In this document: piece after piece, positions 228 to 19,709 of the stretch | Numbering within the stretch: position 1 is the first letter of the stretch | How the letters are laid out: each line of letters opens with the position of its first letter | NCBI GenBank assembly: GCA_050944875.1 | Contig: JBMNRW010000004.1 | Coordinates: 1,304 to 65,303 of the forward strand | DNA: 64,000 nucleotides | Direction: 5' to 3' | From: Patescibacteria group bacterium | GTDB taxonomy: Bacteria > Patescibacteriota > UBA1384 > JACPKC01 | Position numbers and translations under genes: made by a program | Notes under the pieces: generated by a model | What the model saw: only the letters and a program-made list of their open reading frames with translations | Database searches by the model: none | What the model was told of the DNA's origin: nothing

Positions 228-259
228 TAATTGACAAACGCCGCATTCTGTGCTAGAGT
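228..259 (+). promoter_or_regulatory. Near-consensus sigma70-type promoter TTGACA-N17-TAGAGT (P1) preceded by an AT-rich UP-like tract
   Basis: ttgaca at 228-233, 17 nt spacer, tagagt at 254-259; the -10 plus about 70 nt downstream is paralogous to the promoter at 14572. Confidence 0.55.
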
Positions 260-896
260 GTTGCGTTTTCAAATGAGGAATGAACTAGCAGCGAGCAGCC
301 ACGTGGCCCCGCGTTTGCTTCGGCTAACGACGGGGTCGGTACCCTCTTTTGCTGGGCAGTAGCTTGCTGAACTTCAGCACGTTCTGCCCCGCGCAAGCGG
401 GAGCTTTGGAAGGGAGGTGCCTGCCATGCAGCGCACCTAGAACCCCGGCGTGGCCGTGGCTGGATCCGGCTCGTCAATCGGGCGCTCAGCTCGTTTCAGC
501 GGGCGTGCGTCGTCGACAGCTTCGAGTGGGACACCTCACTGAGGCAGTTCCGGCTCGAGGACTGGCCGGTGAGCCTGACCTTCTGGGAGGGTTACCACAT
601 GCTGTGGTTTGACGCTCGGCCGCCGACGGACCGGGACCTCGGTGAGCACCAGAAGGAGCTCGTCGAGACCGTACTTATCGCGGTCTTCGAGGGACTGGCC
701 TTGGCCCAAGGAGTAGTGCTCACCGCGTGAGCGCTGCACCGGGCCCAACTTCGCTCTGCTCTACAGCGGAGCGCCTGGCCGCGCGGTTGAGCAGTATGCT
801 CCCGCCCCAGGCACCCCGAGCCAGCTTGGCTCGGGGACTTACCTCTGATTTCAATCCACCAATTGAGGATAGAGGTAAGTTCTTAGAGCTCGCCAG
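260..896 (+). ncRNA. Candidate orphan transcript (about 640 nt, GC-rich) between promoter P1 and the terminator at 897-932. No ATG-initiated ORF. It contains a 119-codon ATG-less open frame (371-729) and a possible GTG-start 53-aa ORF (569-730)
   Basis: Promoter upstream, strong terminator downstream; six-frame ORFs are short and junk-like on both strands except the frame-2 reading …FEWDTSLRQFRLEDWPVSLTFWEGYHMLWFDARPPTDRDLGEHQKELVETVLIAVFEGLALAQGVVLTA. Confidence 0.3.
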
Positions 897-932
897 CATA
901 AAAGACCGCCTATGAAAGGCGGTCTTTTTGTA
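897..932. terminator. Bidirectional rho-independent terminator: 10-bp perfect stem (aaagaccgcc/ggcggtcttt), 7-nt loop, T-run on either strand
   Basis: Hairpin 901-927 followed by ttttg on the plus strand and by ttttatg on the minus strand. Confidence 0.7.
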
Positions 933-1092
933 TTCCGGATGAGTCGGCCGTTTTCGAATCCCTAGCGTCTCTCCATCGCTGGTATGCTCGATCGAAAATA
1001 AAGTTGTAGAATCGCTCGATGCGAGACTGCGCCTCCGGTGTTTCGTCAACCTGTCGATAGACGATTTTGAGTTTTCGCTTCCTTGTCATCAT
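910..1092 (-). CDS. Small basic protein (about 60 aa, MTRKRKLKIVYRQVDETPEAQSRIERFYNFIFDRAYQRWRDARDSK...), possible DNA-binding or antitoxin-like protein, divergent from the XRE gene
   Basis: Lys/Arg-rich, AT-rich codon usage unlike the genome; the internal Met-Met of ORF 910..1125 was chosen to avoid overlap with the XRE gene; the C-terminal tail runs into the terminator hairpin so the true stop is uncertain. Confidence 0.35.
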   Translation of the reverse strand: MMTRKRKLKIVYRQVDETPEAQSRIERFYNFIFDRAYQRWRDARDSKTADSSGIQKDRLS

Positions 1093-1156
1093 GCCTCCTA
1101 TGACCATGGTACTACCCGTAGCCACCCTGGGGATAACCTGCTATACTATCCACTGC

Positions 1157-1393
1157 ATGGCTAGTACAGAAAATAAATTAGAGACCAATGACTTGGGCAG
1201 TCAATTGAAGAGTGCTCGAGAAACGGTTAAACTCACCCAAGCAGAGGTGGCCTCTGCTGCAGGCATTCATGTAAATTTTTATGCCCGCATCGAGCGAAAT
1301 GAAGAAACACCGTCGATTGAGAATCTTCAAAAGATTATGAAGGTACTCAAAATCAAGACGCTGAATCTTACTGCTCCCGAAGATCGTGAGTAG
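1157..1393 (+). CDS. XRE-family (Cro/C1-type) helix-turn-helix transcriptional regulator
   Basis: Motif LSQLKSARETVKLTQAEVASAAGIHVNFYARIERNEETPSIENLQKIMKVL is a classic HTH_3; start moved to the internal Met of ORF 1067..1393. Confidence 0.7.
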   Translation: MASTENKLETNDLGSQLKSARETVKLTQAEVASAAGIHVNFYARIERNEETPSIENLQKIMKVLKIKTLNLTAPEDRE

Positions 1394-1528
1394 TTTCTCC
1401 ATCGGTATCGGTGTACGCGCGACGTAATTGGTCGAGCCAGCCTAGAAGCGGTTCGAATAAAAGTGCATCAAGGACCCCACTAAAACAGGGCACTGCACCA
1501 CCACCTACTTAGCGGAAAAGGACAAATT

Positions 1529-1735
1529 ATGTACGAATACCTTACGGAGCACCCGTTAGCACTGCTACTCTTTCTGGTCTGGAGTGCTTCATGGAAAGGA
1601 TTTGCCCTTTGGCGCGCAGCAAAGGCCGATAGTAGAGTATGGTTTATCGCTCTTTTTGTAATGAATACTGCTGGTATTCTTGAAATACTTTACCTGTTCC
1701 TTTTCTCGAAAACGACAAATACGAAAACGGCATAA
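1529..1735 (+). CDS. Small two-helix membrane protein resembling the DUF5652 family common in CPR/Patescibacteria
   Basis: 68 aa; ...WSASWKGFALWRAAKADSRVWFIALFVMNTAGILEILYLFLF; two hydrophobic helices; weak AAGGA upstream. Confidence 0.5.
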   Translation: MYEYLTEHPLALLLFLVWSASWKGFALWRAAKADSRVWFIALFVMNTAGILEILYLFLFSKTTNTKTA

Positions 1736-1770
1736 CAAAAGCAATAGCGACGGCGCTGTTCGTCGCACTT

Positions 1771-1847
1771 GCCCCTGTAGCTTAACTGGATAGAGCAGCG
1801 GGTTTCTACCCCGCAGGTTGGAGGTTCGAGTCCTCCCGGGGGCGCCA
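1771..1847 (+). tRNA. tRNA-Arg (anticodon TCT), CCA encoded
   Basis: Cloverleaf read manually: acceptor gcccctg/cgggggc, anticodon loop tttctac, T-arm ggagg-ttcgagt-cctcc. Confidence 0.85.
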
Positions 1848-1865
1848 TACTTAGGCACACAGCAA

Positions 1866-1900
1866 ACGCACGCACCATCACCGTGGCGCGTGCGTTTTTG
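1866..1900. terminator. Rho-independent terminator (8-bp stem acgcacgc/gcgtgcgt, T5 tail), also downstream of the minus-strand lipoprotein gene
   Basis: Hairpin followed by tttttgttt. Confidence 0.6.
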
Positions 1901-1904
1901 TTTC

Positions 1905-2336
1905 CTAGAGCGGGCTAACCCGCGTGCCAGTTACTAGGACAATCGGTCGCTGCGCCGGGTCAACGAGCGTCACAACCACATCCCATGAGCTGCTACGAAG
2001 AAGGAGCGTCGTATGGTCTTGCTGCACAATCTCTTCCACGCTCCAGCCAGGCAGTCCGTGCAGCGTTTCGGCGACAGCGACACGACTCCTGCCGGAGACA
2101 TACCGCAACTGAAAACCCTCAGCCGCAACAACAGCATCTTCAATCGTCAAGACATCGATCCGAAGCTCCATCGGCATAACGTCATACACTTCGTCCGTGG
2201 CAGCTGCGCGCTCCTCGCTCGTCATAGCACTTCGCTGTACCTGTGGCCCAAATGCGAACGGCAAGCGTACGGCGCCGCCATAGCACCCACTCAGTGTAAG
2301 TGCGATCAAAGAGATATAGATCAGGCGTTTTGCCAT
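1905..2336 (-). CDS. Hypothetical lipoprotein (signal MAKRLIYISLIALTLSGC)
   Basis: Lipobox L-S-G-C after a hydrophobic stretch; start set at the internal Met of ORF 1905..2405. Confidence 0.5.
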   Translation of the reverse strand: MAKRLIYISLIALTLSGCYGGAVRLPFAFGPQVQRSAMTSEERAAATDEVYDVMPMELRIDVLTIEDAVVAAEGFQLRYVSGRSRVAVAETLHGLPGWSVEEIVQQDHTTLLLRSSSWDVVVTLVDPAQRPIVLVTGTRVSPL

Positions 2337-2421
2337 GTGCTCACTATACCAGGATTCCTTGAACTCATCGCGCACTTCTGTTACCATCTCGGCGTCGCGC
2401 TGCACGTGCGTGTGCCTTACG

Positions 2422-2496
2422 GATCGCTAGCTCAATGGTAGAGCAGCTGCCTCTTAAGCAGTTGGTTCTGGGTTCGAGTCCCAGGCGGTCCACCAG
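2422..2496 (+). tRNA. tRNA-Lys (anticodon CTT), CCA encoded
   Basis: Manual cloverleaf: acceptor ggatcgc/gcggtcc, anticodon loop ctcttaa, T-loop ttcgagt. Confidence 0.85.
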
Positions 2497-2497
2497 G

Positions 2498-2572
2498 GCC
2501 CCATCGTCTAATGGTTAGGACACCACCCTTTCACGGTGGGAATCGGGGTTCGAATCCCCGTGGGGTCACCAG
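2498..2572 (+). tRNA. tRNA-Glu (anticodon TTC), CCA encoded, 1 nt after tRNA-Lys
   Basis: Acceptor ggcccca/tggggtc, anticodon loop ctttcac, T-loop ttcgaat. Confidence 0.85.
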
Positions 2573-2581
2573 AGTAAGTAC

Positions 2582-2609
2582 CTACCCGTTGACGGTAGGT
2601 TTATTTTTG
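2582..2609 (+). terminator. Rho-independent terminator after the tRNA-Lys/Glu pair
   Basis: cctaccc gttga cggtagg followed by tttattttt. Confidence 0.65.
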
Positions 2610-2650
2610 CCTCGAACTCACTATCGGCGCGTCCATGCTATACTGCACTC

Positions 2651-3304
2651 ATGTCCTCACTCGGCACCCCTGACAGTAAATCTATCCTACTTCTCGTTGG
2701 CGTCGTCGCAGTCGGCGCTGTATTTATCATCGCGATCGCACTCCTTTCGAATCGCCCCCAAAAAGCGGCAGTTATTACTGCGCTTCCGTACAGTGATCCG
2801 GAATCAGGCATCGTGTTCACTGCGCCCGCAACATGGTCAGTTGGAGCAGATAGCGGCGCGTTTCTTAAAATCCGTTCCGTGAAACTTGACTCGATTCAAA
2901 CGCAGCGAAGCACCTGTGCAAACTACAGCACAACGACATCAAAATCGATTCAGCTCGCCCTCAAGGATAACCTGAGCTCTGCATCGGAGACGTGGCGGAA
3001 AGAGTTCCCGGGCCTGCGTCACGCAGAAACCGTGCAGACAAAATCCGGTGTCGCACTCCTGGGTGTCGACACGTGCAATACATCACTGACACGCAAAACC
3101 CTCACGCTACGAGGACAAACCTATCGGAACAATACGGAGGTCCGATTCGAAGTAACACTGACTCCACCAACGACCGCCGAGAATACCTCCGAACCATCGA
3201 GCAGTATACTCAACGCGTTTGCTGATGACCTAATCCAAGGCGCCGGTGGCGAACAACAGGCGACGTTCACCGGTTTCGTGCAGACGCTGCGCTCAATCGA
3301 GTAG
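2651..3304 (+). CDS. Hypothetical membrane-anchored protein (N-terminal TM helix, Ser/Thr-rich ectodomain)
   Basis: 217 aa; LLLVGVVAVGAVFIIAIALL anchor; tatact -10-like element just upstream; no recognisable domain. Confidence 0.45.
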   Translation: MSSLGTPDSKSILLLVGVVAVGAVFIIAIALLSNRPQKAAVITALPYSDPESGIVFTAPATWSVGADSGAFLKIRSVKLDSIQTQRSTCANYSTTTSKSIQLALKDNLSSASETWRKEFPGLRHAETVQTKSGVALLGVDTCNTSLTRKTLTLRGQTYRNNTEVRFEVTLTPPTTAENTSEPSSSILNAFADDLIQGAGGEQQATFTGFVQTLRSIE

Positions 3305-4442
3305 GCGTTACGAACTCAGCGTGCAAATGCAACGCGTACGCGAGCGTTGCCTGTAGTGCGGCGATTCGAGCAGTGGGCACGCGGAGCCGCTGCAGCGACA
3401 GTACGCCCGGCGAAACCGCAAGATCGTGGACGAAGAGCTCACCGTCGGTAGTCGGCCGAAAATCGATCGTCAACTCACCGAGACCATGCACCCGCACGTC
3501 GAGCAGGCGGACGATCGCTTCGACGGTCGTATGGATGTGGTAGAGAAACGACTTCGTCCTGCTCTGTAGTTGCTCCTCGAGCACTCCCTCGAGTTCGTGG
3601 GCGAGCCCCGCCGTTGCATACCTCCCGCCTACCATCCCCTGCTGACCAAAGCGGAGGAGCATCGTGGGCGACTGCCAGGTTGCTCGCTCGCCGCGTTGCA
3701 TGAACACACGAACCATGAGCGGATGTCCCTCGATAAGCAACGGCTGTCGGTACGGCACGAGCATGGTCTCGCCGCACGTACTCTCGAGGTAGCTCCGGAC
3801 GCGCAGCAACGAGCGAAACGTCTGCTCCTCCGCATGCTCTCCGTACTCACGCCGACAGACCATTGCATCAGTCTGTCGGTTCAGCAGCACGAGCTCGTTC
3901 GCCTGGCCGCGGTACCGACTGAACGCCAGAAGCTGTGGCGCTGCCGCTGAGAGTGAGGCGATCGTCGCACTATCACGGAGGAGCGTCGCCTCCGAAATAA
4001 CCCGGGTAAGGGTTGGGGAGCTCCCGAGTACATGGAAGCTTCGCCACCGGTCGTTCGTCATTGCCTCGATCTCCGGGTGATTGAAGAACTGTACGCCACC
4101 CTCGTCTCGAAGCCAGGTCAATGCGTCGAGCTCCGCCTCTGAAAGAGTCGGCCGACGCACTACCGCCACGTGCGGAAGCACGCAGAACGCCCGCTCCCAG
4201 CTCCCATTTGACCGAGTCCAGCCCCAGATGAGGCGCCGCTGCTTCAAGAGATCCCGGTACGAGAACGCGTACGCCGTCCAGCCATCTGCCTGCGCGCGCT
4301 CGACTAAATCCCTCAAATACGTCGTGTACGAGCCGAAGACACCACCGCTCGACTCGGGCGCATGCGGCTGCGCGAGCACGGCGAAGACGCGTGACATCCC
4401 TCCAGCCCCCAGTAGCGGCGTACTTCCGACTTGCATGGTCAT
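3267..4442 (-). CDS. ATP-grasp protein of the YheC/YheD-like family (possible peptide ligase)
   Basis: N-terminal Rossmann-like part (…VFAVLAQPHAPESSGGVFGSYTTYLRDLVERAQADGWTAYAFSYRDL) and C-terminal motif GELTIDFRPTTDGELFVHDLAVSPG resembling the YheC/D signature; the start could be the Met at 4397. Confidence 0.5.
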   Translation of the reverse strand: MTMQVGSTPLLGAGGMSRVFAVLAQPHAPESSGGVFGSYTTYLRDLVERAQADGWTAYAFSYRDLLKQRRLIWGWTRSNGSWERAFCVLPHVAVVRRPTLSEAELDALTWLRDEGGVQFFNHPEIEAMTNDRWRSFHVLGSSPTLTRVISEATLLRDSATIASLSAAAPQLLAFSRYRGQANELVLLNRQTDAMVCRREYGEHAEEQTFRSLLRVRSYLESTCGETMLVPYRQPLLIEGHPLMVRVFMQRGERATWQSPTMLLRFGQQGMVGGRYATAGLAHELEGVLEEQLQSRTKSFLYHIHTTVEAIVRLLDVRVHGLGELTIDFRPTTDGELFVHDLAVSPGVLSLQRLRVPTARIAALQATLAYALHLHAEFVTPTRLSAASARNR

Positions 4443-4461
4443 TCGGTATAGTACACTCCTA

Positions 4462-6441
4462 ATGAACAGGGTCGCAACGCTTACGCTCGACGCGCCCTAC
4501 GCACCGGCCGGCGACCAGCCGCAAGCAATTGCAGCGCTCACCGAAGGCCTCAGGCGCGGGGACGAGCACCAGACGCTACTTGGTGTCACAGGCTCAGGAA
4601 AGACGTTCACGATCGCGAACGTCCTTGCGGCGTGCAACCGTCCAGCGCTCGTCATCGCGCACAATAAAACGTTGGCTGCCCAGCTGACGCAAGAGTTCCG
4701 GACGTTCTTCCCCAATAGCGCCGTCGAGTACTTCGTCAGCTACTACGACTACTACCAGCCAGAGGCGTACCTTCCAGGTTCGGACACGTACATCGAGAAA
4801 GAAGCGCAGATCAACGATGAGATCGACCGCTTACGCCACGCAGCGACGGCCGCTCTCCTGACGCGCCGTGACGTCATCGTCGTCGCCTCGGTGTCGGCAA
4901 TCTACGGCCTTGGTTCGCCAGCCGAGTACAAGCGGACGATGCTCGGCCTTCAGGTAGGTACCGAGATCGACCGCTCCGAGCTCCTCGCCCGGCTCATCGA
5001 CATGCAGTACCTCCGGAGCACCTCGTACGAACGCGGCACCTTCCACGCACGCGGCCCAGTCATCGACGTCGTCCTGGCGGGTGAAGAGCGGATCTACCGC
5101 ATCATGCTTGAAGGGAAAACCACCGCCCGCCTCGCCGTACTCGACCGCGTCTCGCGCCGCGTCCTTGAAGAAGTCGATACGCTCTATATCTTCCCCGCGA
5201 AGCACTTCGTCGTCGCCCCCGAGCTCATGGACGGCGCCCTCAAGAACATCCACGCTGAACTCGTGACTCAGGTCGAGCACCTACGCAAGCGGGGGAAGAT
5301 GCTCGAAGCGGAACGGCTTTGGCGCCGAACGAACCACGACCTCGCGCTCATTCGGGAAGTCGGCTACTGCAATGGCATTGAGAACTACTCGCGCCACCTC
5401 TCCGACCGCAAACCAGGCGAGGCGCCGTACACACTCCTCGACTACTTCCCCGACGACTTCGTCACTGTCATTGACGAGTCGCACGTCACCGTCCCACAGA
5501 TTGGCGGTATGTACGCCGGTGACCGGGCACGCAAGGAAACGCTCATCGAGTACGGGTTCCGCCTCCCGTCCGCGCTCGACAACCGGCCGCTCAACTTCAC
5601 GGAGTTCCTCCAGAAAACTGGCCAGAAACTCTACCTCTCGGCGACGCCCGGTCCGTACGAGCGCAAGGTGAGTACGCAGCTCGTCGAGCAGATCATCCGG
5701 CCGACCGGCCTCATCGATCCTGAGGCTGATATTCGCCCGATCGAGAACCAGGTCGACGACGCGATCCGGGAGATTGCCGCTGAAGTGGACGGTGGTAACC
5801 GCGTCCTCGTCACGACGCTCACGAAGAAAATGGCCGAAGACCTCTCCGAGCACCTCGAAAAGGCTGGCGTGAAGTCGACGTACCTCCACTCCGACGTGGA
5901 CACGATCGACCGGATCCGCATCCTCGAGAAGCTCCGCCGCGGCACGGTCGACGTGCTCGTCGGCGTCAACCTCTTGCGCGAGGGTCTCGACCTGCCCGAG
6001 GTCTCGCTCGTCCTCATCCTCGACGCAGATAAAGAAGGCTTCCTCCGTTCCGAAACCTCGCTCGTCCAGACGATCGGCCGTGCGGCGCGTAACGTCCGGG
6101 GACGCGTCGTGCTCTACGCCGACGCCGTAACTGGCTCCATGGAGCGGGCGCTCAAGGAAACCGAACGCCGGCGAACAAAGCAGCTCAAGTACAACGAAGA
6201 GCACGGTATCACGCCGGAGACGGTGAAGAAGAACATCCAGAGCATTATCCCCGAGGAAGACATCCTGCCGAGCGAAGACCTCGTGAAGCCGATCAACCTC
6301 GACGACCTGCCGAAGATGATCCGCGAAAAGGAGCGGCAGATGAAAGAGCTCTCGCACGGGCTCCGGTTCGAAGAAGCTGCCGTCGTCCGCGACGAGCTCA
6401 TCCAGCTCCGGAAGATGCACCGCACGCTGTCCGGGCGCTAA
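4462..6441 (+). CDS. uvrB: Excinuclease ABC subunit B
   Basis: DAPYAPAGDQPQAI, GVTGSGKTF Walker A, YYDYYQPEAY, DESHVT, and the C-terminal EEAAVVRDELIQLRKM (UvrB C-terminal motif); start chosen at MNRVATL (4462) to avoid overlapping the upstream gene. Confidence 0.95.
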   Translation: MNRVATLTLDAPYAPAGDQPQAIAALTEGLRRGDEHQTLLGVTGSGKTFTIANVLAACNRPALVIAHNKTLAAQLTQEFRTFFPNSAVEYFVSYYDYYQPEAYLPGSDTYIEKEAQINDEIDRLRHAATAALLTRRDVIVVASVSAIYGLGSPAEYKRTMLGLQVGTEIDRSELLARLIDMQYLRSTSYERGTFHARGPVIDVVLAGEERIYRIMLEGKTTARLAVLDRVSRRVLEEVDTLYIFPAKHFVVAPELMDGALKNIHAELVTQVEHLRKRGKMLEAERLWRRTNHDLALIREVGYCNGIENYSRHLSDRKPGEAPYTLLDYFPDDFVTVIDESHVTVPQIGGMYAGDRARKETLIEYGFRLPSALDNRPLNFTEFLQKTGQKLYLSATPGPYERKVSTQLVEQIIRPTGLIDPEADIRPIENQVDDAIREIAAEVDGGNRVLVTTLTKKMAEDLSEHLEKAGVKSTYLHSDVDTIDRIRILEKLRRGTVDVLVGVNLLREGLDLPEVSLVLILDADKEGFLRSETSLVQTIGRAARNVRGRVVLYADAVTGSMERALKETERRRTKQLKYNEEHGITPETVKKNIQSIIPEEDILPSEDLVKPINLDDLPKMIREKERQMKELSHGLRFEEAAVVRDELIQLRKMHRTLSGR

Positions 6442-6595
6442 CAGCCAACTAGTAGGCTTTCGTGTTTGGGTTCTGTTCGGTTCTGCCGTATACTAGTCTG
6501 GCGACAACTGCTGAACAGGTATCGCCACTACAGTGCAATGATATAGCGTAAGTACTTACTCGCCCCGTCTGCACCAGGGCACTTGGACTCAAGTC

Positions 6596-9429
<2,834 letters not shown>

Positions 9430-9430
<1 letters not shown>

Positions 9431-10671
9431 TGGCACGCGGCGCCGTCACGCCCCAAACCCGCAACCGTCTTCCGCGCGAGCCCGGCGTCTACTACTACCA
9501 GGACAGCACCGGGACGACGCTCTACGTCGGCAAGGCGACCAGTCTCCGTGACCGCGTCGGCTCATACTGGTCGCGCCCCTTAGACGCGCGCCTCACGGAG
9601 ATGCTCCCGAAGATCGCGCGCATCCGCTACCAGACGACCGACACCGCGCTCGAGGCCCTCATCCTCGAGGCAAACGAGATCCAGCGCCTGAACCCGCCGG
9701 TCAATATCCGCGGCAAGGACAACAAAACGTTCGCGCAGATCGCGCTCACGAGAGAGGACTTCCCACGACTCCTCATCGCCCGGCCGACGCAGAAGCTCGA
9801 CGTGCCCATCGACCGGACGTTTGGCCCGTACGTCTCCGCAATCGCTGCCCGCCAGGCGCTGAAGACGCTGGGCTCGATCTTCAAGTTCAACTGCAAGGGC
9901 AAGCCACTCTCTGGTCGGCCGTGCTTCTACTACCACTTGGGCTCTTGCCCCGGCGTCTGTGTCGGGAAGATCACGCCCGAGGAGTACCGCAAGCAGATCC
10001 GGAAAGTCGTCCAGTTCCTCGAAGGGAAGAAAGCGCGCGTCATCGCGACGACTCGTCGGCAGATGGAGGAGGCGGCGCGCGCCGAGCGGTTCGAGCAGGC
10101 CGCGCGACTGCGCAACGAGCTCTTCGCACTCACCCACATTCGCGACACCGCCTTCATGACCGACGACTCGACCGAGTTTCTCTCGCAGGCCTTCCCGCCA
10201 AGGCTCGAGGCCTACGACATCTCAAATATTGGCGCGACCGCCGCAGTGGCGAGTATGGTCGTCCTCGAGTACGGCCGGCCCAACCCCAACGAGTACAAGC
10301 AGTTTCGCATCCGTTCAACGCCCGGCCAGAACGACGTCGCAATGATCCGTGAGGTCGTGACGCGTCGCCTCAACCACCCCGAGTGGGGCACGCCCGACCT
10401 CATCCTCATCGACGGCGGCTTGGCGCAGGTAAATGCCGCGCGGGTCGCCGCCAAACGCGCCGGCCAACCTAACCTGCCGATCGCTGGCGTCGTCAAAGGC
10501 CCCCAGCGCAAGCTCGCCCGCCTAGTCTTAACGGACGCGGCACGTGACTGGCTGAATAACCACCGACTCACAACACAGCTCTTTGAGCCGGTCGCCCGCC
10601 TCGCCCGCGACGAAGCCCACCGCTTCGCCATTAAGTACCACCGAAAGGTGCGAAACAAACGACTATACTAA
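9430..10671 (+). CDS. uvrC: Excinuclease ABC subunit C, short form (GIY-YIG plus endonuclease domain; the C-terminal HhH2 domain is absent)
   Basis: GVYYYQDSTGTTLYVGKATSLRDRVGSYW GIY-YIG motif; ...DEAHRFAIKYHRK near the C-terminus; 413 aa versus about 600 typical; ATG overlaps the uvrA stop (TAATG). Confidence 0.88.
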
Positions 10672-10678
10672 ACTACAC

Positions 10679-12226
10679 CTACATCGCGGCCGGGTGGTAC
10701 TTAAGATCCTGCCGGGCGACGTGCTTCTCCGTCACGCGAAACCCGAGGTACTTCCCAAAGAGGAGTCGGGTCTGGGCGTCGACCGCCGGCAAGGACGAGA
10801 AGAGCAGGCATGAGATCGGTAAGAGGATCGGGGCGGTAATCCACTCGAGCGCGACGCTCGACGCCGAGGCGACCTGGCGATTCTTCGGTCGCGGCGGCAG
10901 GAGGAGCATCGAGATCATCTGTGTTACCGCCATACCGACGAGTGCGGTGGTGAGGATATTCCCGTAGAGCGGCGGGAAGGTGTACGCAATGACGGCGTTA
11001 CTGTACTGCCCACGCGCCAGCAAGGTCGGAAGCCAGCTGTACACCGCGAGAATGATCGAGGTCGTCCCCCACGAGAAGTGCCCTTCGACGAGCCGCCAGG
11101 CCTGGTACCACTTATCGAGCATCGGGAGGTGTGGGTTCTTCCACGTGTGGTAGAGCACGTACGGGATGTCCGAGCAGCCCCACGCCCACCGGCGCTTCTG
11201 CAGGTACTGCTCGCGGAACGTCGCCACGTACCCCTTCGGCGAAAGCACGGCGTCCTGGTAGACGGGTACGTTCAAGGGGATAACGTCGTGGCGGCCGTTG
11301 AACTTGAAGTAGCTGCGCCAGTACTGGTGGCCGTCCTCGACGATCGTCTTCGTCGACCAGTACTTCGTTGCGACGACTGCCTCGAAGCTCTGGGCGTGGG
11401 CAGAGAAGTTCCGCAGTCGGTACGGCCGGGTCGACTCGATCATCTGCCAGAACGAGCTCCCAAGCGCGATCGACCGGATCGGCATCGGAACCTCCCAGAT
11501 ATTATTAAAGAACATCGGGATCGGCTGGAACGAGGCGTGCACCGGGTCCGGGTGCTTGAGGTACGCGTACGCGAGCGCCGCGAAGTACTTCGCGTGGACG
11601 CGGTTGTCAGCGTCGAGCGTCGTCGTTACCACTCGGTCGTACGGGATATTCCGCCGGTCCAAAAGGCGCCGCGCGTGCTTCGCCGCCCAGCTAATGTTCG
11701 CGCCCTTCCCGATCACCTCACCCGGAATATCAGCCGGGTGCACAGTCGTAAGGAGCGCCGCAAAAGTCTTGCCATAGGACGCCTTCGCCGCCTTTGCGAC
11801 CGCTGCCCCGTTCTCGGCAAAGCGACCCTCAGTGGCTAAGACGACGATGATCCGGTCCTTCCGGTACCCCGCGCTCGCGATCGACTCGAGCGTCGACGCG
11901 ACGATGAGCGGATCCTCTTTCGAGACCGCCACGACGACCATGTGGTAGAGCGCGTCGACTGCGTCAGCCGGGAACCGGGTGTCGAGCTCCTTGAGCCAGT
12001 CCCGTCTGACGTCGCGGCGGTAGCGCAGGAACCCAACAACCAAGCGCGCACTCATCATGAGCGCGCGGGAGAGCCAGAGGACGGCGTAGACGATGAGCAG
12101 GTTCGCCGCGACCGTTGGCGCGAAAATCGTCAGTACCAGGAGTCCAATGAACGTTCCCCAGGTCAACAAGCCAGGCACAAGCTCAAGCCAAACCGGGTAC
12201 GGCGTGTCGTGGAGCCCGCCCCGCAT
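10679..12226 (-). CDS. Membrane-embedded family-2 glycosyltransferase (processive, cellulose/chitin-synthase-like)
   Basis: TLDADN (D,D), QYLQKRRWAWG (QxxRW), multiple TM helices on both sides; start set at MRGGLHD, overlapping the stop of the upstream small ORF (TAATG). Confidence 0.8.
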   Translation of the reverse strand: MRGGLHDTPYPVWLELVPGLLTWGTFIGLLVLTIFAPTVAANLLIVYAVLWLSRALMMSARLVVGFLRYRRDVRRDWLKELDTRFPADAVDALYHMVVVAVSKEDPLIVASTLESIASAGYRKDRIIVVLATEGRFAENGAAVAKAAKASYGKTFAALLTTVHPADIPGEVIGKGANISWAAKHARRLLDRRNIPYDRVVTTTLDADNRVHAKYFAALAYAYLKHPDPVHASFQPIPMFFNNIWEVPMPIRSIALGSSFWQMIESTRPYRLRNFSAHAQSFEAVVATKYWSTKTIVEDGHQYWRSYFKFNGRHDVIPLNVPVYQDAVLSPKGYVATFREQYLQKRRWAWGCSDIPYVLYHTWKNPHLPMLDKWYQAWRLVEGHFSWGTTSIILAVYSWLPTLLARGQYSNAVIAYTFPPLYGNILTTALVGMAVTQMISMLLLPPRPKNRQVASASSVALEWITAPILLPISCLLFSSLPAVDAQTRLLFGKYLGFRVTEKHVARQDLKYHPAAM

Positions 12227-12513
12227 TAGGACATGCTCCCATACACCATCGCGAACAGGATGAGAAACCCAACTTGCACGATCACGGCTGCCCCTCCTAA
12301 CACGTATCCTACGATAGGCTCTCGGCGAGCATACGTCCAGGTGATGAACGCGTTCGAAACCAAAAAGACGCTCGCGGCAAGCGGCGCCACTAGATCGTAC
12401 GTGACAAGCGACCGTAGCCACCAGACGAGGAGGTTACCGAGAACGGCAACTGCGAAGAGGAAGGTAGTGCTCCGGTCGACCCCGGCTGGCGGGGTGGGTG
12501 GGGTCGTGGTCAT
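12226..12513 (-). CDS. Small 2-TM membrane protein translationally coupled to the GT2 gene
   Basis: 95 aa, Pro/Thr-rich N-terminus then two hydrophobic helices; stop overlaps the GT2 start codon. Confidence 0.45.
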   Translation of the reverse strand: MTTTPPTPPAGVDRSTTFLFAVAVLGNLLVWWLRSLVTYDLVAPLAASVFLVSNAFITWTYARREPIVGYVLGGAAVIVQVGFLILFAMVYGSMS

Positions 12514-12529
12514 ACGGTAGTTGTTGAGC

Positions 12530-12604
12530 TGGAGCCGGTGGGCGGATTTGAACCGCCGACCTTTGCTTTACGAAAGCACTGCTCTACCACTGAGCTACAC
12601 CGGC
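12530..12604 (-). tRNA. tRNA-Thr (anticodon CGT), CCA encoded
   Basis: Manual fold of the reverse complement: acceptor gccggtg/caccggc, D-arm gctcagtggtagagc, anticodon loop ttcgtaa (one G-A mismatch at 27-43), T-arm ggcgg-ttcaaat-ccgcc. Confidence 0.75.
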
Positions 12605-12743
12605 GAGTGAACCAACGAGCGAATACTACTGGAATTCGCGAGAATGTGAACGAGCCTCGTAGCTACGAACGTAGCTACACCGGCACTTTTCCCTGTTACC
12701 TCGGTGGGCAGTGTAGCACGGCGACACACAGATTTCCAGCCTT

Positions 12744-13175
12744 TCACTGCAAGCCGAGATCCACCGGATCACCTACGGCAATACCGTGCTCGCGGACGAA
12801 GCCTGACCGGACTTCGAGTACGGCGTCGACAGCCGACGGAGCAGGGTACTGCTGCGCGCCATCATCAGTCGGCATTTCCCCTTCATACCCGACCACGGTG
12901 CCACCCTGAATCCAAATAAGATCGATCGGGAAGGTCACACCTTTCATCCAGAACGTCGGCCTGGTGGGCGAATCGTATGGGAAGAGCATCCCGTCTGAAG
13001 GCCCGAGCGGCGAGTGTCCCGCAAGGCCACGAACTTGCTCCTCCTCGGAGCGCGCGACCTCCGCCTGCACCGTGACGCGCTCGAACCGAACAGAAACCGT
13101 ACGCTTCGACGCACCGATCTGCCAGAGCACCATACTGATGATTCCAATCAGGAGAACGCCGCCCAGCCAGCGCAC
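12744..13175 (-). CDS. DUF192 (COG1430) family protein with N-terminal membrane anchor
   Basis: MLFPYDSPTRPTFWMKGVTFPIDLIWI matches the DUF192 core; N-terminal hydrophobic helix. Confidence 0.6.
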   Translation of the reverse strand: MRWLGGVLLIGIISMVLWQIGASKRTVSVRFERVTVQAEVARSEEEQVRGLAGHSPLGPSDGMLFPYDSPTRPTFWMKGVTFPIDLIWIQGGTVVGYEGEMPTDDGAQQYPAPSAVDAVLEVRSGFVREHGIAVGDPVDLGLQ

Positions 13176-14476
13176 TACGCTACCTGAAGCAGGCGCTTCG
13201 TCTCTACCTTGTACTTCTCGACTGCAGGCTGGTCGAATGGGTTCACGCCCAAGAGATGGCCGAGGTACATCATCTCGAGCATCTTGAGCTGCAAGAATGC
13301 GCCAATGCTCTCCTCATTCATAGCATCGAGCTCCAGCACCATGAACGGTCGCTCTGCCTTCTCGTACGCGATCATCGTCCCATCAAGAATAGCGTCCATA
13401 ATGGTTGCCATTGGCTTCCCGGCGATATCACCGACAAGCGCCCCAACCTCCGGCCGATTCGGGACCGTGAGCGCCGGCAGCGCCCGGACCCGAACAAACG
13501 TCGTCACCCGGTCGTTCGGCCCATCGAGGTAGAGCTGCACGACCGAGTGGAGGTCGGTCGACCCCATCGAGACGGTCGGCGTCATACCGGCGTGGACCAC
13601 CTCGCCCGCTCGGTTGTGCTCCTTCCCAATCGACTCACCCATGAGCTGACGATACCACTTCCCGACACTCTCAAGGTCCGACGCGAAGAGGAATGTATCG
13701 TGGATCGGTATGCCCGCCTGATTATGCGCGTAGAGCACTACCGCGCTCATCGCCGCCGGGTTCTCATCGAGCGAGGTTGCAAGGCACGCGTCGCGCATCG
13801 CCTTGGCACCCTTCACGAGTGCGCGGACGTCAATACCCGCGACGGCAAGGGGGAAGAGGCCAACCGCCGAGAACACGGAGTACCGCCCGCCGACCGTTTC
13901 GGGCATCCGAAGACACGGGATTCCCTGCTCCTGCCCGTACTGCCAGAGCTTCGAACCCTCGACCGTCGTTAAGACGACCGAATCCTTGGCGCTTCCGCCT
14001 GCCTGCTCCACGGCGTCGAGGAGCGCGAAGAAGTTCGCGGTCGTCTCGATCGTCCCACCCGACTTCGAGATTCCGTTCAAGAGCACGCGCTTCCCGTCCT
14101 TAGCGAACGTCTGCACCTGCTCAATAAGTCGCCCCATTGACAGCGCGTCTACCGTGTCAGCGTAGAACACCTGCGTGCCCGCGGCTTTACCCCCCAGTCG
14201 CCCCTGGATCGCCTCCTGCACTGCCATCGTCCCAAGGTTGGATCCCCCAATACCAATAACGACGAGCGCATCGACGTCCTGGTACCGTTCGGCAAGTGAT
14301 AACACCTCATCGAGGAGTGCCGAATCGTCGACGAGGTTCACGCTCGCCCGATCGTCCGCGTAGCCGCCAGCCTGCACGAGCTCCCGCATTCGAGTAATCT
14401 CGGGCGCTAGCTGCCCTGAAATCTCCGATAGTACGTCAGCTGCCACTCGACCCATCTGGCTCTCGAACCGCACCAT
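13175..14476 (-). CDS. pgi: Glucose-6-phosphate isomerase (short bacterial form)
   Basis: 433 aa; VVIGIGGSNLGTMAV, SKSGGTIETTANF, GGRYSVFSAVGLFP are the PGI signatures. Confidence 0.9.
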   Translation of the reverse strand: MVRFESQMGRVAADVLSEISGQLAPEITRMRELVQAGGYADDRASVNLVDDSALLDEVLSLAERYQDVDALVVIGIGGSNLGTMAVQEAIQGRLGGKAAGTQVFYADTVDALSMGRLIEQVQTFAKDGKRVLLNGISKSGGTIETTANFFALLDAVEQAGGSAKDSVVLTTVEGSKLWQYGQEQGIPCLRMPETVGGRYSVFSAVGLFPLAVAGIDVRALVKGAKAMRDACLATSLDENPAAMSAVVLYAHNQAGIPIHDTFLFASDLESVGKWYRQLMGESIGKEHNRAGEVVHAGMTPTVSMGSTDLHSVVQLYLDGPNDRVTTFVRVRALPALTVPNRPEVGALVGDIAGKPMATIMDAILDGTMIAYEKAERPFMVLELDAMNEESIGAFLQLKMLEMMYLGHLLGVNPFDQPAVEKYKVETKRLLQVA

Positions 14477-14571
14477 TGGACGCTCCTCTTCTTACCGATA
14501 TCCCCGCTATTCTCCGCATTTCCGGAATATCGCGCAACAGGTTCAAATCGTCTATTTATGGTATTAAACAC

Positions 14572-14600
14572 TTGACAAATGCGAAAGTATCTGGTAGAGT
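14572..14600 (+). promoter_or_regulatory. Near-consensus promoter TTGACA-N17-TAGAGT (P2), divergent from pgi, paralogous to P1
   Basis: ttgaca at 14572-14577, tagagt at 14595-14600; AT-rich upstream; downstream leader shares about 70% identity with the P1 leader. Confidence 0.55.
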
Positions 14601-15500
14601 ATCGCGTTGACAACAAGAAATGATGCCAGGTGCGAGCTGCGGCGATCGGTGTTCCCCTCCTCACCGTTCGCCACAAGTCTCACCTGAACGGGTGGGAAGT
14701 ACCAACCGAAACATCACGACGGCCTGTAGAGTAGAGTGTCCAGAAGCGCTCCGAACTGCGGAAACAGCCTCCTGCGCCATACCTATGTATGTAGGTGCGA
14801 CGCGGGGAGAACTGGGTCCACAGCGCTTCTACAGGCCTTTTGTATACGACAAGAAGCGCACCCAGCGAACGTTTCAAACGCGATGTGGCCACGGCAGCAG
14901 GAATTCCCCTGCCCGTCCAAACCCCGAGCACGGGGCGAAGACGTACCAGAGTGTGGCAACTGACGGTGGCTTGAAGGCCGACCCTGGGTCCCATCCGGGG
15001 CGCGATACCATGAACCGTCGGGTATAGCTGAACTGACATGAGCAAGCCGGTGCTACGGCGTTCGAGCTCATGTCCATTCACGCTGCACAGTCCGTTGCCG
15101 AGCCGGGGCCTTGTGCCTTACTCGGCGGCGGGTCGCATGCGGTGTCGAGATCCCCAAACATTTCGAGAAGGGTTCCAGCGCCACGACACCGTCTGCGATC
15201 CGCTCCACGCGGAAACCCGCTGAATTCCAGCGGTGTGGTCTACTCCGGAGGGGTAGCGCGACGCTTACAACATGCGTCAGCCTACGTTCCTTTCCCGAGC
15301 GTAGGCCACGCCGCTGCCAATGCAGCACATCACGATGACGCCGGTGGCAACGCCGTCTCCGCTCGGATAGAGCCGTCATCCCCCTCTGTAGCGTCGGGGA
15401 AGCTTGCCTGTAGTGGCAGCGCCGGGTCCACGCCCGCAACAGACGCACACAAATCAGTTGGCTTCTCGTGGAAAGAAGCTGACGAAGAAGGGAGGCGTCT
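14601..15500 (+). ncRNA. Candidate long non-coding transcript or decayed gene downstream of P2 (about 900 nt GC-rich, no credible ORF on either strand)
   Basis: Only overlapping junk-like ORFs on both strands (Arg/Ser/Pro-rich), typical of non-coding high-GC DNA; 5' region paralogous to the P1 transcript. Confidence 0.3.
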
Positions 15501-15503
15501 ACC

Positions 15504-15677
15504 ATGAGCGACCTCCTGAAATGGATATTGGCCGTGGGCGCGATCGGCCTCTTTTGTTGGGGTTACGTAGATGGGCTCGACCGTGATGAGCACGTCTACG
15601 TTGCGCCGGACCCGGCAGTCCGGCAGCAGAATATCGAAGCGCAGGGGGGGTTTCACTCCCAACGATACTGGGAGTGA
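15504..15677 (+). CDS. Small membrane protein (57 aa, MSDLLKWILAVGAIGLFCWGYVDGLDRDEHVYVAPDPAVRQQNIEAQGGFHSQRYWE), below the ORF-track cutoff
   Basis: Strong SD GAAGGGAGG 8 nt upstream of ATG; one TM helix; the 3' end overlaps a perfect 15-bp hairpin. Confidence 0.4.
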   Translation: MSDLLKWILAVGAIGLFCWGYVDGLDRDEHVYVAPDPAVRQQNIEAQGGFHSQRYWE

Positions 15678-15683
15678 AACCCC
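15647..15683 (+). other. Perfect 15-bp stem-loop (ggggtttcactccca / acgatac / tgggagtgaaacccc)
   Basis: Read directly; no U-tract follows, so not a canonical intrinsic terminator. Confidence 0.6.
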
Positions 15684-15698
15684 TAGGAGTTGCAGATA

Positions 15699-15815
15699 CT
15701 CCGTAAAAAACGCTGCCGGTTGAAGCTCTCCGTAAAAGCTTCGATCCTACGGCATGGAGGTAAAAATGCCGAATACAAAATAGCCCTGGACCCGGGGCGC
15801 TATAAAATGGGCATC
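15699..15815 (+). repeat. Direct repeats ctccgtaaaa (15699 and 15728, 29-bp spacing) plus phased A-tracts (ggtaaaaatgcc, atacaaaatagcc, ctataaaatgggc), iteron-like
   Basis: Read directly; AT-rich pocket in GC-rich surroundings. Confidence 0.4.
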
Positions 15816-16093
15816 GACCGCCGGGGTTGTCGGCGCGGTGGCCAAACGGCCGCAAGAAGATCGACGGAGCAACGGAGGGTCCGCCGGTAGTCAAGTGCAC
15901 AAGTACTTAGACTGCCCGCCGACCTGTCAATCCGTCGACGCCGCGTCACACCCGGCCTAAAAATCGATCCCGAAGTGGAATTCCTGTCGCTGACCGTGAG
16001 CATCACGCAGCATCAAATACAGGCTTCCGCTTCGGGATCTCCCCTTGCTCTTTGAGTTAACCTCAAAGGTTGAGGAGGAGAGCGAACCTTCTT

Positions 16094-16156
16094 ATGAATT
16101 ACCGCGCAGCACTCGTTGACTCGAGTTTTGCCGGTAATTTAGTAACAAGGAGGTGA
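16094..16156 (+). CDS. Micro-ORF 20 aa (MNYRAALVDSSFAGNLVTRR) with strong SD; its stop overlaps the SD of the next micro-ORF
   Basis: GAGGAGGAG 11 nt upstream of ATG. Confidence 0.2.
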   Translation: MNYRAALVDSSFAGNLVTRR

Positions 16157-16160
16157 AAAA

Positions 16161-16244
16161 ATGAGTAAAGAAGAAAAGCTCCTTCGGGAGCTTCAGACCA
16201 GGATTACCAAAAACGGCAGCCTACAGGTCCGCCTGCTGGGCTAA
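16161..16244 (+). CDS. Micro-ORF 27 aa (MSKEEKLLRELQTRITKNGSLQVRLLG) with consensus SD AAGGAGGTG
   Basis: AAGGAGGTGaaaaaATG; followed by a two-level hairpin (gcccgac...gtcgggc). Confidence 0.3.
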   Translation: MSKEEKLLRELQTRITKNGSLQVRLLG

Positions 16245-16403
16245 CCGTCCTCGCCCGACCTCTGCGCCACAAGCGCACGTCGGGCACTCCCTTCGCTTTT
16301 CGACGAGTCGAAAGACGAAATGGAGAGCGACACCTTCATCTTCCCGGTAGGACCTGAGTCGTTGAGTGATCAGCGCCTCAGGCCCTACATGGGAGGAAGG
16401 GAG

Positions 16404-16972
16404 GTGATAATCATCAGCAGCCTGAAGCTGCTCGGAGCGGTGCTCCTCACTCTGGTCGTCCTCGTGGCGGCTGGGTGTGGCGATCCCAACACCACCTTCA
16501 CGACCCCTGCGGGTGTGTTGGTGATGGAGAGCTACCGGCGGGCCGAGATCACCATCTCGACCGCACGGTGGAGCGCCGACTCCAGCGTGCAGATGGAGCT
16601 GCACAACTGGATGGTCATCCTGCACCCGCTCCAGGCGGACAAGGAAGGCTCGCGGTCTACGAGGCCGTGGTCACGCTCGGCCTGGAGCTGTGCCCCCACC
16701 TGCGCTTCACCTTAGAGGCGCCAGAGTGGGTACAGTTCTTGCCCTTACCGGTCGAGGTGGTCCGCTACCTCGACCACGACGCCATGGCCGAGGCGCTCAA
16801 CGAGCTCCTGGACTCGGAGTACTCGTTCGAGTGCATTTCGCCCGCGTGCGAGAGCATCGACCGCTGGGTCGATGCGAACGACGACGACACGCTCGTCGCC
16901 GTCCTCAAGCGGGCGAAGCAGATCGCTCGCGACTGCGAGGTGCTCGAGCACCTCGACGACCTCTTGAAGTAG
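16404..16972 (+). pseudogene. Lipoprotein gene with an apparent -1 frameshift near 16645-16655 (GTG start, signal IIISSLKLLGAVLLTLVVLVAAG-C); frame 3 then frame 2
   Basis: Frame-3 ORF 16320..16715 carries the lipobox signal and a credible N-terminal half; frame-2 ORF 16475..16972 carries a credible C-terminal half (...AVYEAVVTLGLELCPHLRF...DDLLK); a one-base insertion at ggc|tcg would fuse them; SD GGGAGGAAGGGAG before the GTG. Confidence 0.45.
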
Positions 16973-17052
16973 AGGTCGATTCCGCCTGGTCGCACGGCTC
17001 CCATCACGGTTGAGCCGCCCAGGCCACCCGGATCCTAAACAGATCCGGGCCT

Positions 17053-17092
17053 CTCTTCTCCGCTGGGATTTCCCAAATCAAGCGGAGAAGAG
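17053..17092 (+). promoter_or_regulatory. 11-bp hairpin (ctcttctccgc / gcggagaagag) whose 3' arm runs into the SD of the 17106 ORF
   Basis: Read directly; SD GGAGG at 17092-17096, ATG at 17106. Confidence 0.4.
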
Positions 17093-17105
17093 GAGGTGAA
17101 TCAAA

Positions 17106-17387
17106 ATGAAGGTGGAAGTCGACCGTGAGGTCCTTATCACCGGCCCCTTTGCGAACCGGTTCCTAGTTCGCAAGGAGAAAGATGACTTCGGCCGTGAGAA
17201 AGGCCGCGACCTGTCCGGCGCCGACCTGGTCGGCAAGATGGGCAAGGTCGTCGGCCTCAACTCGGCGAGCGCTACCATTGCGCTCGCCAAGGCCCTGAAG
17301 GGCGAGGAGTACGCGCCGTTCGCCTACGTAAAGGTGGATGGCGAGAAACTCGCCCTTCGTTTCTCGGAGTTCAGCGTGGTCCGCTAG
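17106..17387 (+). CDS. Hypothetical protein, 93 aa
   Basis: Strong SD GAGGAGGTG; MKVEVDREVLITGPFANRFLVRKEKDDFGREKGRDLSGADLVGKMGKVVGL...; no recognisable domain. Confidence 0.45.
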   Translation: MKVEVDREVLITGPFANRFLVRKEKDDFGREKGRDLSGADLVGKMGKVVGLNSASATIALAKALKGEEYAPFAYVKVDGEKLALRFSEFSVVR

Positions 17388-17490
17388 GAACAGGCTTAAC
17401 TTCCCATCACCCCGAGCAGCACTGCTGTTCGGGGCTTCCTCGCTGGGTTTGATCATATCGATCAAAATCTAACCCGGCGATGGAGGCAGT

Positions 17491-17721
17491 ATGAAGCTGT
17501 TCCGTCAAACGCTGGGGATCGCGCTGGAATACGCGCATCCCGGCAACGTCGCCCCCCCCCGCGAGATCGTGGGCCTGTTGGCCCTCGCGTCCGAGTTGGA
17601 CCGTGGAGCCTTATCCGAGGCGGCCCAACAGGGACTGGAGCATCTGGCACTCGTCCTCATGCAGGACGAGCAGTTCCAGCGGTTCCACCGCCACCACGTC
17701 GAGCGGATGCGGACGCCGTAG
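17491..17721 (+). CDS. Hypothetical protein, 76 aa
   Basis: SD GGAGG before ATG; palindromes (tttgatcatatcgatcaaa, ccccgagcagcactgctgttcgggg) in its upstream region. Confidence 0.4.
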   Translation: MKLFRQTLGIALEYAHPGNVAPPREIVGLLALASELDRGALSEAAQQGLEHLALVLMQDEQFQRFHRHHVERMRTP

Positions 17722-17957
17722 TCCGGTATCCGCTCGATCAACACCAACCGCCCCGGTTCGCGCCGGGGCACTCTCTCTGGCACTGATACATATCAGTGCT
17801 GAAGCTGAGTGTTAGATGAAGAACGCAACGTACACACTGGCCCGCTTCGGGTTGGGATGTGACGGCTAGTAGATTGATCGCATCAGCCGATTCGAGCAAT
17901 CCGCTTATCTGCCGTAGATCCCCTTCTGGACCCGGAGCGGACCAGTGCGTACAACCA

Positions 17958-17990
17958 AAGAGCCCTGCCAATTCGGCAGGGCTCTTTTTG
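17958..17990. terminator. Rho-independent terminator (12-bp stem aagagccctgcc / ggcagggctctt, T4)
   Basis: Hairpin plus ttttgtatt; sits between convergent small genes. Confidence 0.7.
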
Positions 17991-18004
17991 TATTGCCAAT
18001 GTTC

Positions 18005-18232: not shown

Positions 18233-18303
18233 ACCTGCATCCTACCACAAACAACCGCCGCCCAACCTCGAAAGGCTGAGCGGCGGTTGGAGCAGTTTTC
18301 AAT

Positions 18304-19704: not shown

Positions 19705-19709
19705 ACGGA

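Follow-up and report, generated by a model that had tools for sequence, protein, structure and literature searches.

Two promoters with the same near-consensus hexamers, P1 and P2, raise the question of what they transcribe in a 64,000-nt stretch of DNA (hereafter, the window) that forms part of a ~60% GC contig from a metagenome-assembled genome (MAG) of Patescibacteria (candidate phyla radiation, CPR). An earlier note on this DNA had read the regions downstream of P1 (locus 1) and P2 (locus 2) as copies of one regulatory or 5' element, each heading a long transcript that was taken to be either a non-coding RNA or a decayed gene. Patescibacteria genomes are tiny and, to our knowledge, few regulatory RNAs have been described for these bacteria; a literature search on Patescibacteria regulatory RNAs found no relevant paper. 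The reading that we favour with moderate confidence, on sequence evidence, is that P1 and P2, together with a third copy (P3), make up a family of promoter cassettes that would drive unrelated accessory units, and that the unit at locus 2 begins with an RNA leader or attenuator.

With regard to locus 2, the earlier description as free of open reading frames (ORFs) was confirmed; no frame of 14601-15503 carries a coding signal, and a codon-usage model for which 18 housekeeping ORFs of the window served as training set (GC at codon positions 1/2/3 of.67/.44/.74) yielded negative codon log-likelihoods in all six frames across 14477-15503. Two relatives identified through the neighbouring pgi gene, L082 and L083 (80% and 74% protein identity), were used for comparison; both are short contigs, which reach 260 and 514 nt upstream of pgi, and the L083 contig ends at ~14880, up to which point conservation of locus 2 was compared. 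Between the window and L083, 78, 86 and 38% of the first, second and third codon positions of pgi are identical, the last value indicating near-saturation of silent sites, and the pgi-P2 spacer cannot be aligned (39%). By comparison, the first 280 nt of the region presumably transcribed from P2 are 82.7% identical between the window and L083. The ~245-nt domain with which this region begins (Table 1) is thus conserved about as well as pgi at its first two codon positions, which suggests that it has a function worth its cost.

A number of observations suggest that what is conserved in this domain is an RNA structure. All 70 predicted pairs form in both the window and L083, with four compensatory changes, four one-sided changes compatible with G-U pairing and no broken pair, while sliding the 3' partners by one to three columns as a control reduced pairing to 37-47%; the observed value for conservation of pairing was reached by 19 of 500 shuffles, with n = 2 sequences. 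By our own count, substitutions in the same alignment affect ~29% of the unpaired columns versus ~9% of the paired ones. The domain has a folding z-score of -6.4 on the plus strand and -4.3 on the minus strand, and eight of its pairs involve G-U in at least one of the two sequences; this asymmetry and the G-U pairs favour the plus strand, which fits an RNA read from P2. Loss of ATG 14620 and a 2-nt indel in L083 exclude a conserved ORF. A closing stem (GGCCUGUAGAG/CUUCUACAGGCC) is followed by conserved UUUUGUAU.

Searches for relatives of this domain point to a structured RNA of no known family, which appears to be undescribed. An Rfam search, as proposed in the earlier note, identified nothing beyond tRNAs in the window at the gathering threshold; at E<=10, the best matches within 150-1000 and 14500-16300 reached 13-24 bits against thresholds of 35-80 and were mostly to generic hairpins such as the terminator. 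Families considered included 6S, tmRNA, RNase P, SRP, T-box, OLE, GOLLD, ROOL, HEARO, and raiA, and ARAGORN found no tmRNA in the window. A covariance model built on the domain (R1) detected no further copy when run on the window, on locus 1 and on 1.37 Mb of other loci, two conserved locus-2 motifs searched against viral contigs yielded a single 21-nt chance match, and a six-frame concatenated pseudo-protein query for ORFs called on RNA homologues had no return. Locus 2 resembles the large, ornate non-coding RNAs OLE, GOLLD, ROOL, and raiA (PMC12286853, PMC5737381) in being long, structured, non-coding, headed by a strong promoter and located near a tRNA and accessory genes, but differs from them in that it has no Rfam match (E<=10), in that only ~245 nt are shown to be conserved, and in that its known relatives come from one narrow Patescibacteria lineage only. 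A T-box, suggested by GGGUGG..UACC-like strings in both leaders, was rejected, as the string is not kept in L083 and no Rfam T-box match was found. We also rejected a long-range pairing between the anti-Shine-Dalgarno-like loop of the domain and the Shine-Dalgarno sequence (SD) at 15490-15495, which is possible by eye but is not predicted by the thermodynamic model.

The promoters themselves are ordinary in kind. P1 and P2 had been described as TTGACA-N17-TAGAGT with AT-rich DNA upstream, which is correct in each respect and exact at both sites; both also carry the TGn of an extended -10 and, with 10 of 12 consensus hexamer matches and a 17-bp spacer, qualify by sequence as sigma-70-type promoters. 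They thus share with near-consensus sigma-70 promoters (TTGACA-17-TATAAT, TGn) an exact -35, the spacer length, TGn, a TAnnnT -10 and AT-rich upstream DNA; what the window cassettes seem to add to this generic consensus is T-N-GCGTT right after the -10 as well as spacer similarity among three copies. The third copy, P3, was found in addition. When at most one mismatch was allowed, the full promoter pattern had three matches in the window versus 0.09 expected, and TGACAAA-N15-TANNNT-NTN-GCGTT had three zero-mismatch matches, where 0.01 would be expected even with two mismatches allowed; TAGAGT-N-T-N-GCGTT occurs in the window at the P1 and P2 sites only. In all three pairwise comparisons of P1, P2 and P3, in-register identity was 9-12 of 17 positions in the spacer (random mean 4.4) and 10-12 of 20 positions over +1 to +20 (random mean 5.2); for P3 and P1, 27 of 40 in-register positions are alike by a count made by eye, and the spacers agree at 12 of 17. 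No likeness of the three copies was found in register upstream of the -35 or, save for P1 and P2 to ~+41, beyond ~+20. The P2 core from -35 to -10 is partly conserved in L082 and L083 (22/29 and 22/27 positions). We thus consider P1, P2 and P3 to represent, as part of the reading held with moderate confidence, one family of ~50-bp near-consensus sigma-70-type promoter cassettes, for which the spacer similarity and T-N-GCGTT are, judged by sequence, the family-specific parts.

Locus 1 does not share the character of locus 2. The claim that 260-896 is ORF-free does not hold; this region contains a GTG-started 53-aa ORF (569-730), frame 2 is open over 371-730, and a gene-like codon signature starts at ~450. 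In one frame, the codon log-likelihood is +0.14 (+0.34 for 569-727), versus -0.4 to -0.9 in the other frames, and GC at the three codon positions of this frame is.69/.49/.76, compared to the housekeeping values given above. GTG 569, with a weak GAGGA upstream, is the first canonical start in this frame, and ATG 599 would give 43 aa; NCBI and JGI annotate a hypothetical protein of 43 and 53 aa here, respectively. No Pfam, NCBIfam, PHROG or PDB match was found for the ORF. Since a strong SD with its ATG is out of register with the coding-like frame (Table 1), locus 1 may contain either a gene of ~100 aa that an indel has disrupted or one of 53 aa preceded by a leader of ~300 nt. The leader includes a weak terminator-like hairpin at 332-345, followed by CTTTTGCTGG, and thermodynamic prediction pairs the SD with 435-444 (P unpaired 0.05). 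While locus 1 as a whole has a folding z of -9.7, this value is due to the 3' end (731-935, z -9.2), where three hairpins and a 12-bp terminator are located, with z of -1.6 for the leader and -1.4 for the ORF. The strong terminator that had been proposed to end locus 1 is present as a hairpin with 100% complementarity. Judged by its sequence, locus 1 resembles an orphan small-protein gene that has a 5' leader and many hairpins at its 3' end rather than a 640-nt non-coding RNA; as a small gene it is ordinary in kind, though orphan and possibly broken. Of the two fates that the earlier note had offered for both loci, a long, structured and conserved non-coding RNA applies to P2, and decayed gene is a fair description for locus 1 only.

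Locus 1 also sits in what is, by comparison of contigs, a strain-variable spot. Contigs L090-L093 were available for comparison from a shorter chimeric query whose only matches were DUF4325 homologues. In three contigs with the upstream DUF4325 gene, homology ends exactly at the stop codon of this gene (window 139), and in a contig with the downstream helix-turn-helix (HTH) gene (96% identity) it begins at window 1123. The segment between (140-1122) includes P1 and the orphan ORF along with the hairpins, the terminator and a convergent ORF of 71 aa; none of it is matched next to either flanking gene in four related contigs.

These findings can be combined into one model. The cassette would consist of a -35 element TTGACAAA, a 17-bp spacer with TGn, a TAnnnT -10 and T-N-GCGTT at the start-site region, and each copy would act as a strong sigma-70 promoter for a different lineage-specific accessory transcription unit near a tRNA gene (tRNA-Arg 1771, tRNA-Gly 18370-18443, and tRNA-Asp 26697-26772), with no homology between the units. 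At locus 1, the unit would comprise a ~160-nt leader, an SD with ATG, a coding-like frame that extends to 730 and has lost its register with this ATG, and, at the 3' end, tandem hairpins with a bidirectional terminator. At locus 2, the ~245-nt domain would serve as a regulatory leader or attenuator, in which the closing stem and U-tract gate read-through from the strong promoter; read-through would extend the transcript by another ~650 non-coding nt and into the orphan ORFs downstream, and termination may in addition yield short transcripts that accumulate as a small RNA (sRNA) of ~240 nt. Locus 2 resembles riboswitch and attenuator leaders in that a closed multi-helix domain directly follows the promoter, the closing stem precedes a U-tract, and the downstream genes have no consensus-like promoter, as well as in the presence of alternative pairings (CAGGUG / CACCUG / CGGGUG), but it matches no known aptamer family and its first ORF is ~650 nt away.

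Several points weigh against this model. The comparison at locus 2 involves one relative (L083) and the first 280 nt only, and the covariation comes from two sequences with a structure predicted from the same alignment. The closing stem encloses ~95 nt, which is not a canonical terminator hairpin and was not flagged by a terminator scan, and the ~650 nt of non-coding RNA that separate the domain from the first ORF would make an unusually long leader. Two unrelated promoter-like sites, at 43891 and, on the minus strand, at 41488, carry the -35 extension TTGACAAA as well, an indication that this part of the similarity is lineage consensus. At locus 1, the strong SD and ATG 426 are out of frame with the coding signal and no in-frame start is tied to this SD; a HMMER search of the ORF over 1.84 billion representatives found its own 43-aa fragment and three weak, fragmented matches (E 3e-7 to 8e-5, 4-7 matched stretches each), which were discounted as low-complexity; and the single-sequence AlphaFold model of the ORF is poor and uninformative (predicted local distance difference test score, pLDDT, 55).

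A possible, though on balance unlikely, alternative is that the locus-2 domain is a stand-alone, stable sRNA of ~240 nt, which would act in trans, for example through its anti-SD-like C/U-rich loop on SD regions, and that the sequence downstream is separate. Consistent with an sRNA, the domain can be closed by pairing of its 5' A-rich segment with the 3' U-tract, both of which are conserved, the loop UUCCCCUCCU is invariant, the promoter is near consensus, and folding is weaker beyond 14850 (z ~-2.4). Against an sRNA, no canonical terminator is present and some conservation runs past column 248 in L083. A scan for consensus promoters to 17000 found no promoter-like site on the plus strand downstream of P2; with no consensus-like promoter of their own, the downstream ORFs seem to need read-through.

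Rather improbable, in our judgement, is that the shared module is a roughly symmetric element with facing -35-like arms (TTGACAAAYGC ... GCGTTnnCAA), which would work either as back-to-back promoters, of which the antisense one at P2 would serve pgi, or as a dyad operator for a common regulator. Antisense promoter-like sites do occur in register (P1, TTGAAA-16-CAGAAT, 272-245; P2, TTGTCA-16-GATACT, 14613-14586), AAACGC/GCGTTT in P1 can be read as a perfect inverted repeat, a promoter for pgi is needed in the 95-nt spacer, and an XRE-family HTH gene adjoins locus 1. However, in the antisense direction the hexamers are weak (4/6 in the -10), those at P3 are poor and L083 has not kept them, and neither at P1 nor at P3 is there a gene that an antisense promoter would serve. 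In bacterial bidirectional promoters, as Warman et al. (2021) are summarised in PMC10268837, divergent starts are 7-25 bp apart (mostly 18 bp) and -10 positions are shared. The window module is similar to the promoters of that summary in its pseudo-symmetry and in having promoter-like hexamers on both strands, but its -10-like hexamers are adjacent rather than overlapping and its predicted starts are ~28 bp apart, outside the range and the definition given there. Within the cassette family favoured here, T-N-GCGTT could be a start-site or discriminator element, or it could form one arm of a dyad whose other arm is the -35-proximal AAAYRC, in which case it might be part of an operator or an antisense -35 that could serve pgi at P2.

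It is very unlikely that locus 1 and locus 2 represent paralogous copies of a single regulatory 5' RNA element that heads a long non-coding RNA in each case. A promoter-type element with T-N-GCGTT is indeed common to both loci, both regions taken whole fold better than shuffles, and the similarity claimed past the -10 was found in part, with 21 of 41 in-register positions identical between P1 and P2 from +1 to +41 (p ~7e-4 versus random pairs). The likeness is gone after ~+41, however; identity over +21 to +60 (14/40) is not significant, a gapped local alignment of +1 to +85 scores no better than shuffles, blastn found no paralogous stretch, and a third similarity that had been cited (acgacggggtcggtaccc / aacgggtgggaagtacc) is not kept in L083. 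With filters off, the best match of R1 within 200-1000 reached 6.4 bits and fell on the terminator hairpin, and the folding of locus 1 resides in its 3' hairpins rather than in its leader; the codon signature of locus 1 and its absence from this position in relatives also argue against paralogy. The notion of copies of one element thus survives for the promoter, of which even a third copy exists, and not for the leaders. Finally, decay of protein genes in a degenerating accessory island, with incidental RNA structure, would explain the broken frame of locus 1, the in-frame stop codon and frame switch in the P2 unit and the orphan status of all ORFs, but is highly improbable given that 14601-15503 has no residual codon signature in any frame, that the locus-2 RNA is far better conserved than neutral sites with its pairing kept, and that structure in the downstream ORFs exceeds the level imposed by the proteins.

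The coordinates of the features discussed here and below are collected in Table 1.

Table 1. Features of the P1, P2 and P3 units in the window
Feature	Positions	Strand	Description
P1 promoter module	231-267	+	-35 TTGACA 231-236, 17-nt spacer, -10 TAGAGT 254-259, then GTTGCGTT 260-267
Locus-1 5' leader	266-425	+	no coding signal; ordinary folding, z -1.6
SD and ATG of locus 1	412-440	+	SD GGGAGG 412-417, ATG 426-428, four codons, TAG 438-440
Coding-like region of locus 1	452-730	+	frame pos%3=2, offset -1 from ATG 426; signature ~450-730
Three long tandem hairpins	773-812, 814-836, 837-880	+	locus-1 3' region
Bidirectional intrinsic-terminator hairpin	900-928	both	12-bp perfect stem, A-tract and U-tract; common to convergent 71-aa ORF 910-1125 (-)
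P2 promoter module	14572-14608	+	-35 TTGACA 14572-14577, 17-nt spacer, -10 TAGAGT 14595-14600, then ATCGCGTT 14601-14608
Conserved structured 5' RNA domain	14601-14846	+	~245 nt, 70 predicted pairs, 8 helices (RNAalifold)
Invariant hairpin loop UUCCCCUCCU	14652-14661	+	resembles anti-SD; CCUCCU complementary to GGGAGG (by eye)
Rest of non-coding stretch	14847-15503	+	no coding signal in six frames; moderate folding, z ~-2.4
57-aa ORF	15504-15677	+	SD GGGAGG 15490-15495, ATG 15504, hydrophobic N-terminus, coding signature; singleton in protein collection
Perfect 16-bp hairpin	15646-15684	+	
Very structured non-coding sequence, ~480 nt	to 16160	+	z -9.3 (+), -4.8 (-)
Rest of presumed P2 unit	16161-17987	+	orphan ORFs of 27, 131, 101, 93, and 76 aa; broken frames; dense hairpins in most
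Terminator	17957-17987	+	end of presumed P2 unit
P3 promoter module	27013-27049	+	CTGACA-N17-TACTAT-TTGGCGTT; full sequence CTGACAAATACCCCATTCTATGATACTATTTGGCGTT; directly after tRNA-Asp
P3 unit	27050-28212	+	~200-nt leader, then 320-aa orphan hairpin-dense ORF 27250-28212

The leader of the P3 unit starts with a 5' hairpin (27047-27083), and its C-rich segment at 27183-27192 is predicted to pair with the SD GGAAGGGGGG at 27231-27240. Thermodynamic models thus predict sequestration of the SD in both the P1 and P3 leaders (P unpaired 0.03-0.05), a hint of translational control as far as such models go. The orphan ORFs of the P2 unit (16320-17387) and of the P3 unit (27250-28212) are composed of back-to-back local hairpins; shuffling of synonymous codons gave z of -4.6 to -6.9 in these ORFs versus ~0 in housekeeping genes, including the GC3-rich uvrC, and the plus strand is always more structured than the minus strand. 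All hairpin-dense ORFs in these two intervals are singletons in a collection of 15 billion proteins. Comparison of the 93-aa ORF with a relative (L095), in which identity extends to 79 of 94 aligned positions (stop included) and mismatches by codon position number 9/5/23, indicates that this ORF is a real gene by its substitution pattern; in L095, the hairpin in its leader shows compensatory changes by eye, yet 18 of 120 minimum free energy (MFE) pairs are broken.

Orphan ORFs that build hairpins through synonymous sites, which housekeeping genes on the same contig do not do, raise a separate question. They resemble the ordered, genome-scale RNA structure of RNA viruses (e.g., PMC3338493) in that synonymous sites build structure far above shuffled controls, but differ in that they are DNA-encoded bacterial orphan genes and in that such structure is found only in the units downstream of P2 and P3. 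A speculative and quite unlikely extension would be that the P1, P2 and P3 cassettes mark an undescribed kind of CPR accessory unit, in which whole transcripts, from leaders and intergenic parts to the coding sequences themselves, are selected for dense local hairpins, the RNAs being the selected product (nuclease-resistant, packaged or exported, or a scaffold) and the 245-nt domain a common control element or functional core. If the reading favoured here is confirmed, the locus-2 domain would represent a new RNA family, whether leader/attenuator or sRNA, and the cassette would provide a recognisable promoter by which accessory transcription units can be found in these uncultured bacteria.

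Additional observations concern the P2 unit. In its presumed downstream part, an in-frame TAA (16242-16244) stands between the 27-aa ORF (16161-16244), whose SD is strong, and the ORF that follows in this frame, and the coding signal switches frame near 16650-16715, between the ORFs at 16320-16715 and 16667-16972, so that the frames of this unit look broken. The sequence of this broken-frame region is identical in an independent Logan contig (L001), which has 100% identity to the window over 12560-20334. On the minus strand at 18467-18503, 23 nt upstream of the intact tRNA-Gly, we found a 37-nt copy of a tRNA-Gly(CCC)-like 5' half (GCGGGTATAGTTTAGTGGTAGAACGCGACCTTCCCAG), which may be a remnant of integration or replacement at the border of the P2 island. 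Because no direct repeats were found, we rejected the idea of an integrated element with att repeats; neither repeats nor paralogous fragments were found within the window, and BLAST searches of phages and plasmids with locus 2 and the 320-aa ORF gave no match.

A number of observations also concern the promoters. The pattern of the promoter module was found in five stretches of metagenome contigs (three distinct, by raw count), all from unrelated organisms, without likeness to the window and without an Rfam match. One of these, an unrelated soil-metagenome contig (L086/L087/L088; L087 8787-8823), carries the pattern as TTGACAAAACCTATCAATGGAGCTAGAGTATGGCGTT, followed by GC-rich, hairpin-looking sequence; a large ORF that is transposase-like by appearance only ends just upstream, and the site has no Rfam match and no similarity to the window. 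A perfect palindrome, AATTAACAGGCTTAGAGCCTGTTAATT, is located at 26972-26998, ~15 nt upstream of the P3 -35, and its core AACAGGYT recurs upstream of P2 (14536-14545), where it is kept in L082 (CAACAGGTTCA) though the rest of the spacer is not; by sequence, this palindrome may be a candidate regulator site. The near-consensus promoter-like site at 43891-43919 (TTGACAAATGC...TATAGT) has 11 nt in common with P2 and is without the GCGTT motif; it includes the palindrome TTGCAACTCTGTTGCA in its spacer, an ATG lies 12 nt past its -10 and, by eye, it heads a gene for a Fur-like regulator.

Between locus 1 and locus 2, the window contains tRNA-Arg, tRNA-Lys, and tRNA-Glu, an ATP-grasp gene, uvrB, uvrA, uvrC, a glycosyltransferase gene, tRNA-Thr, and pgi. 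A UvrA-based scan of genome contigs for synteny found best relatives that were at most 59% identical and of no use for comparison. UvrC (9430-10671) has just 413 aa, with GIY-YIG, UVR and RNase-H-like domains and no Pfam match for a C-terminal helix-hairpin-helix part, and uvrB, uvrA and uvrC are contiguous in the window.

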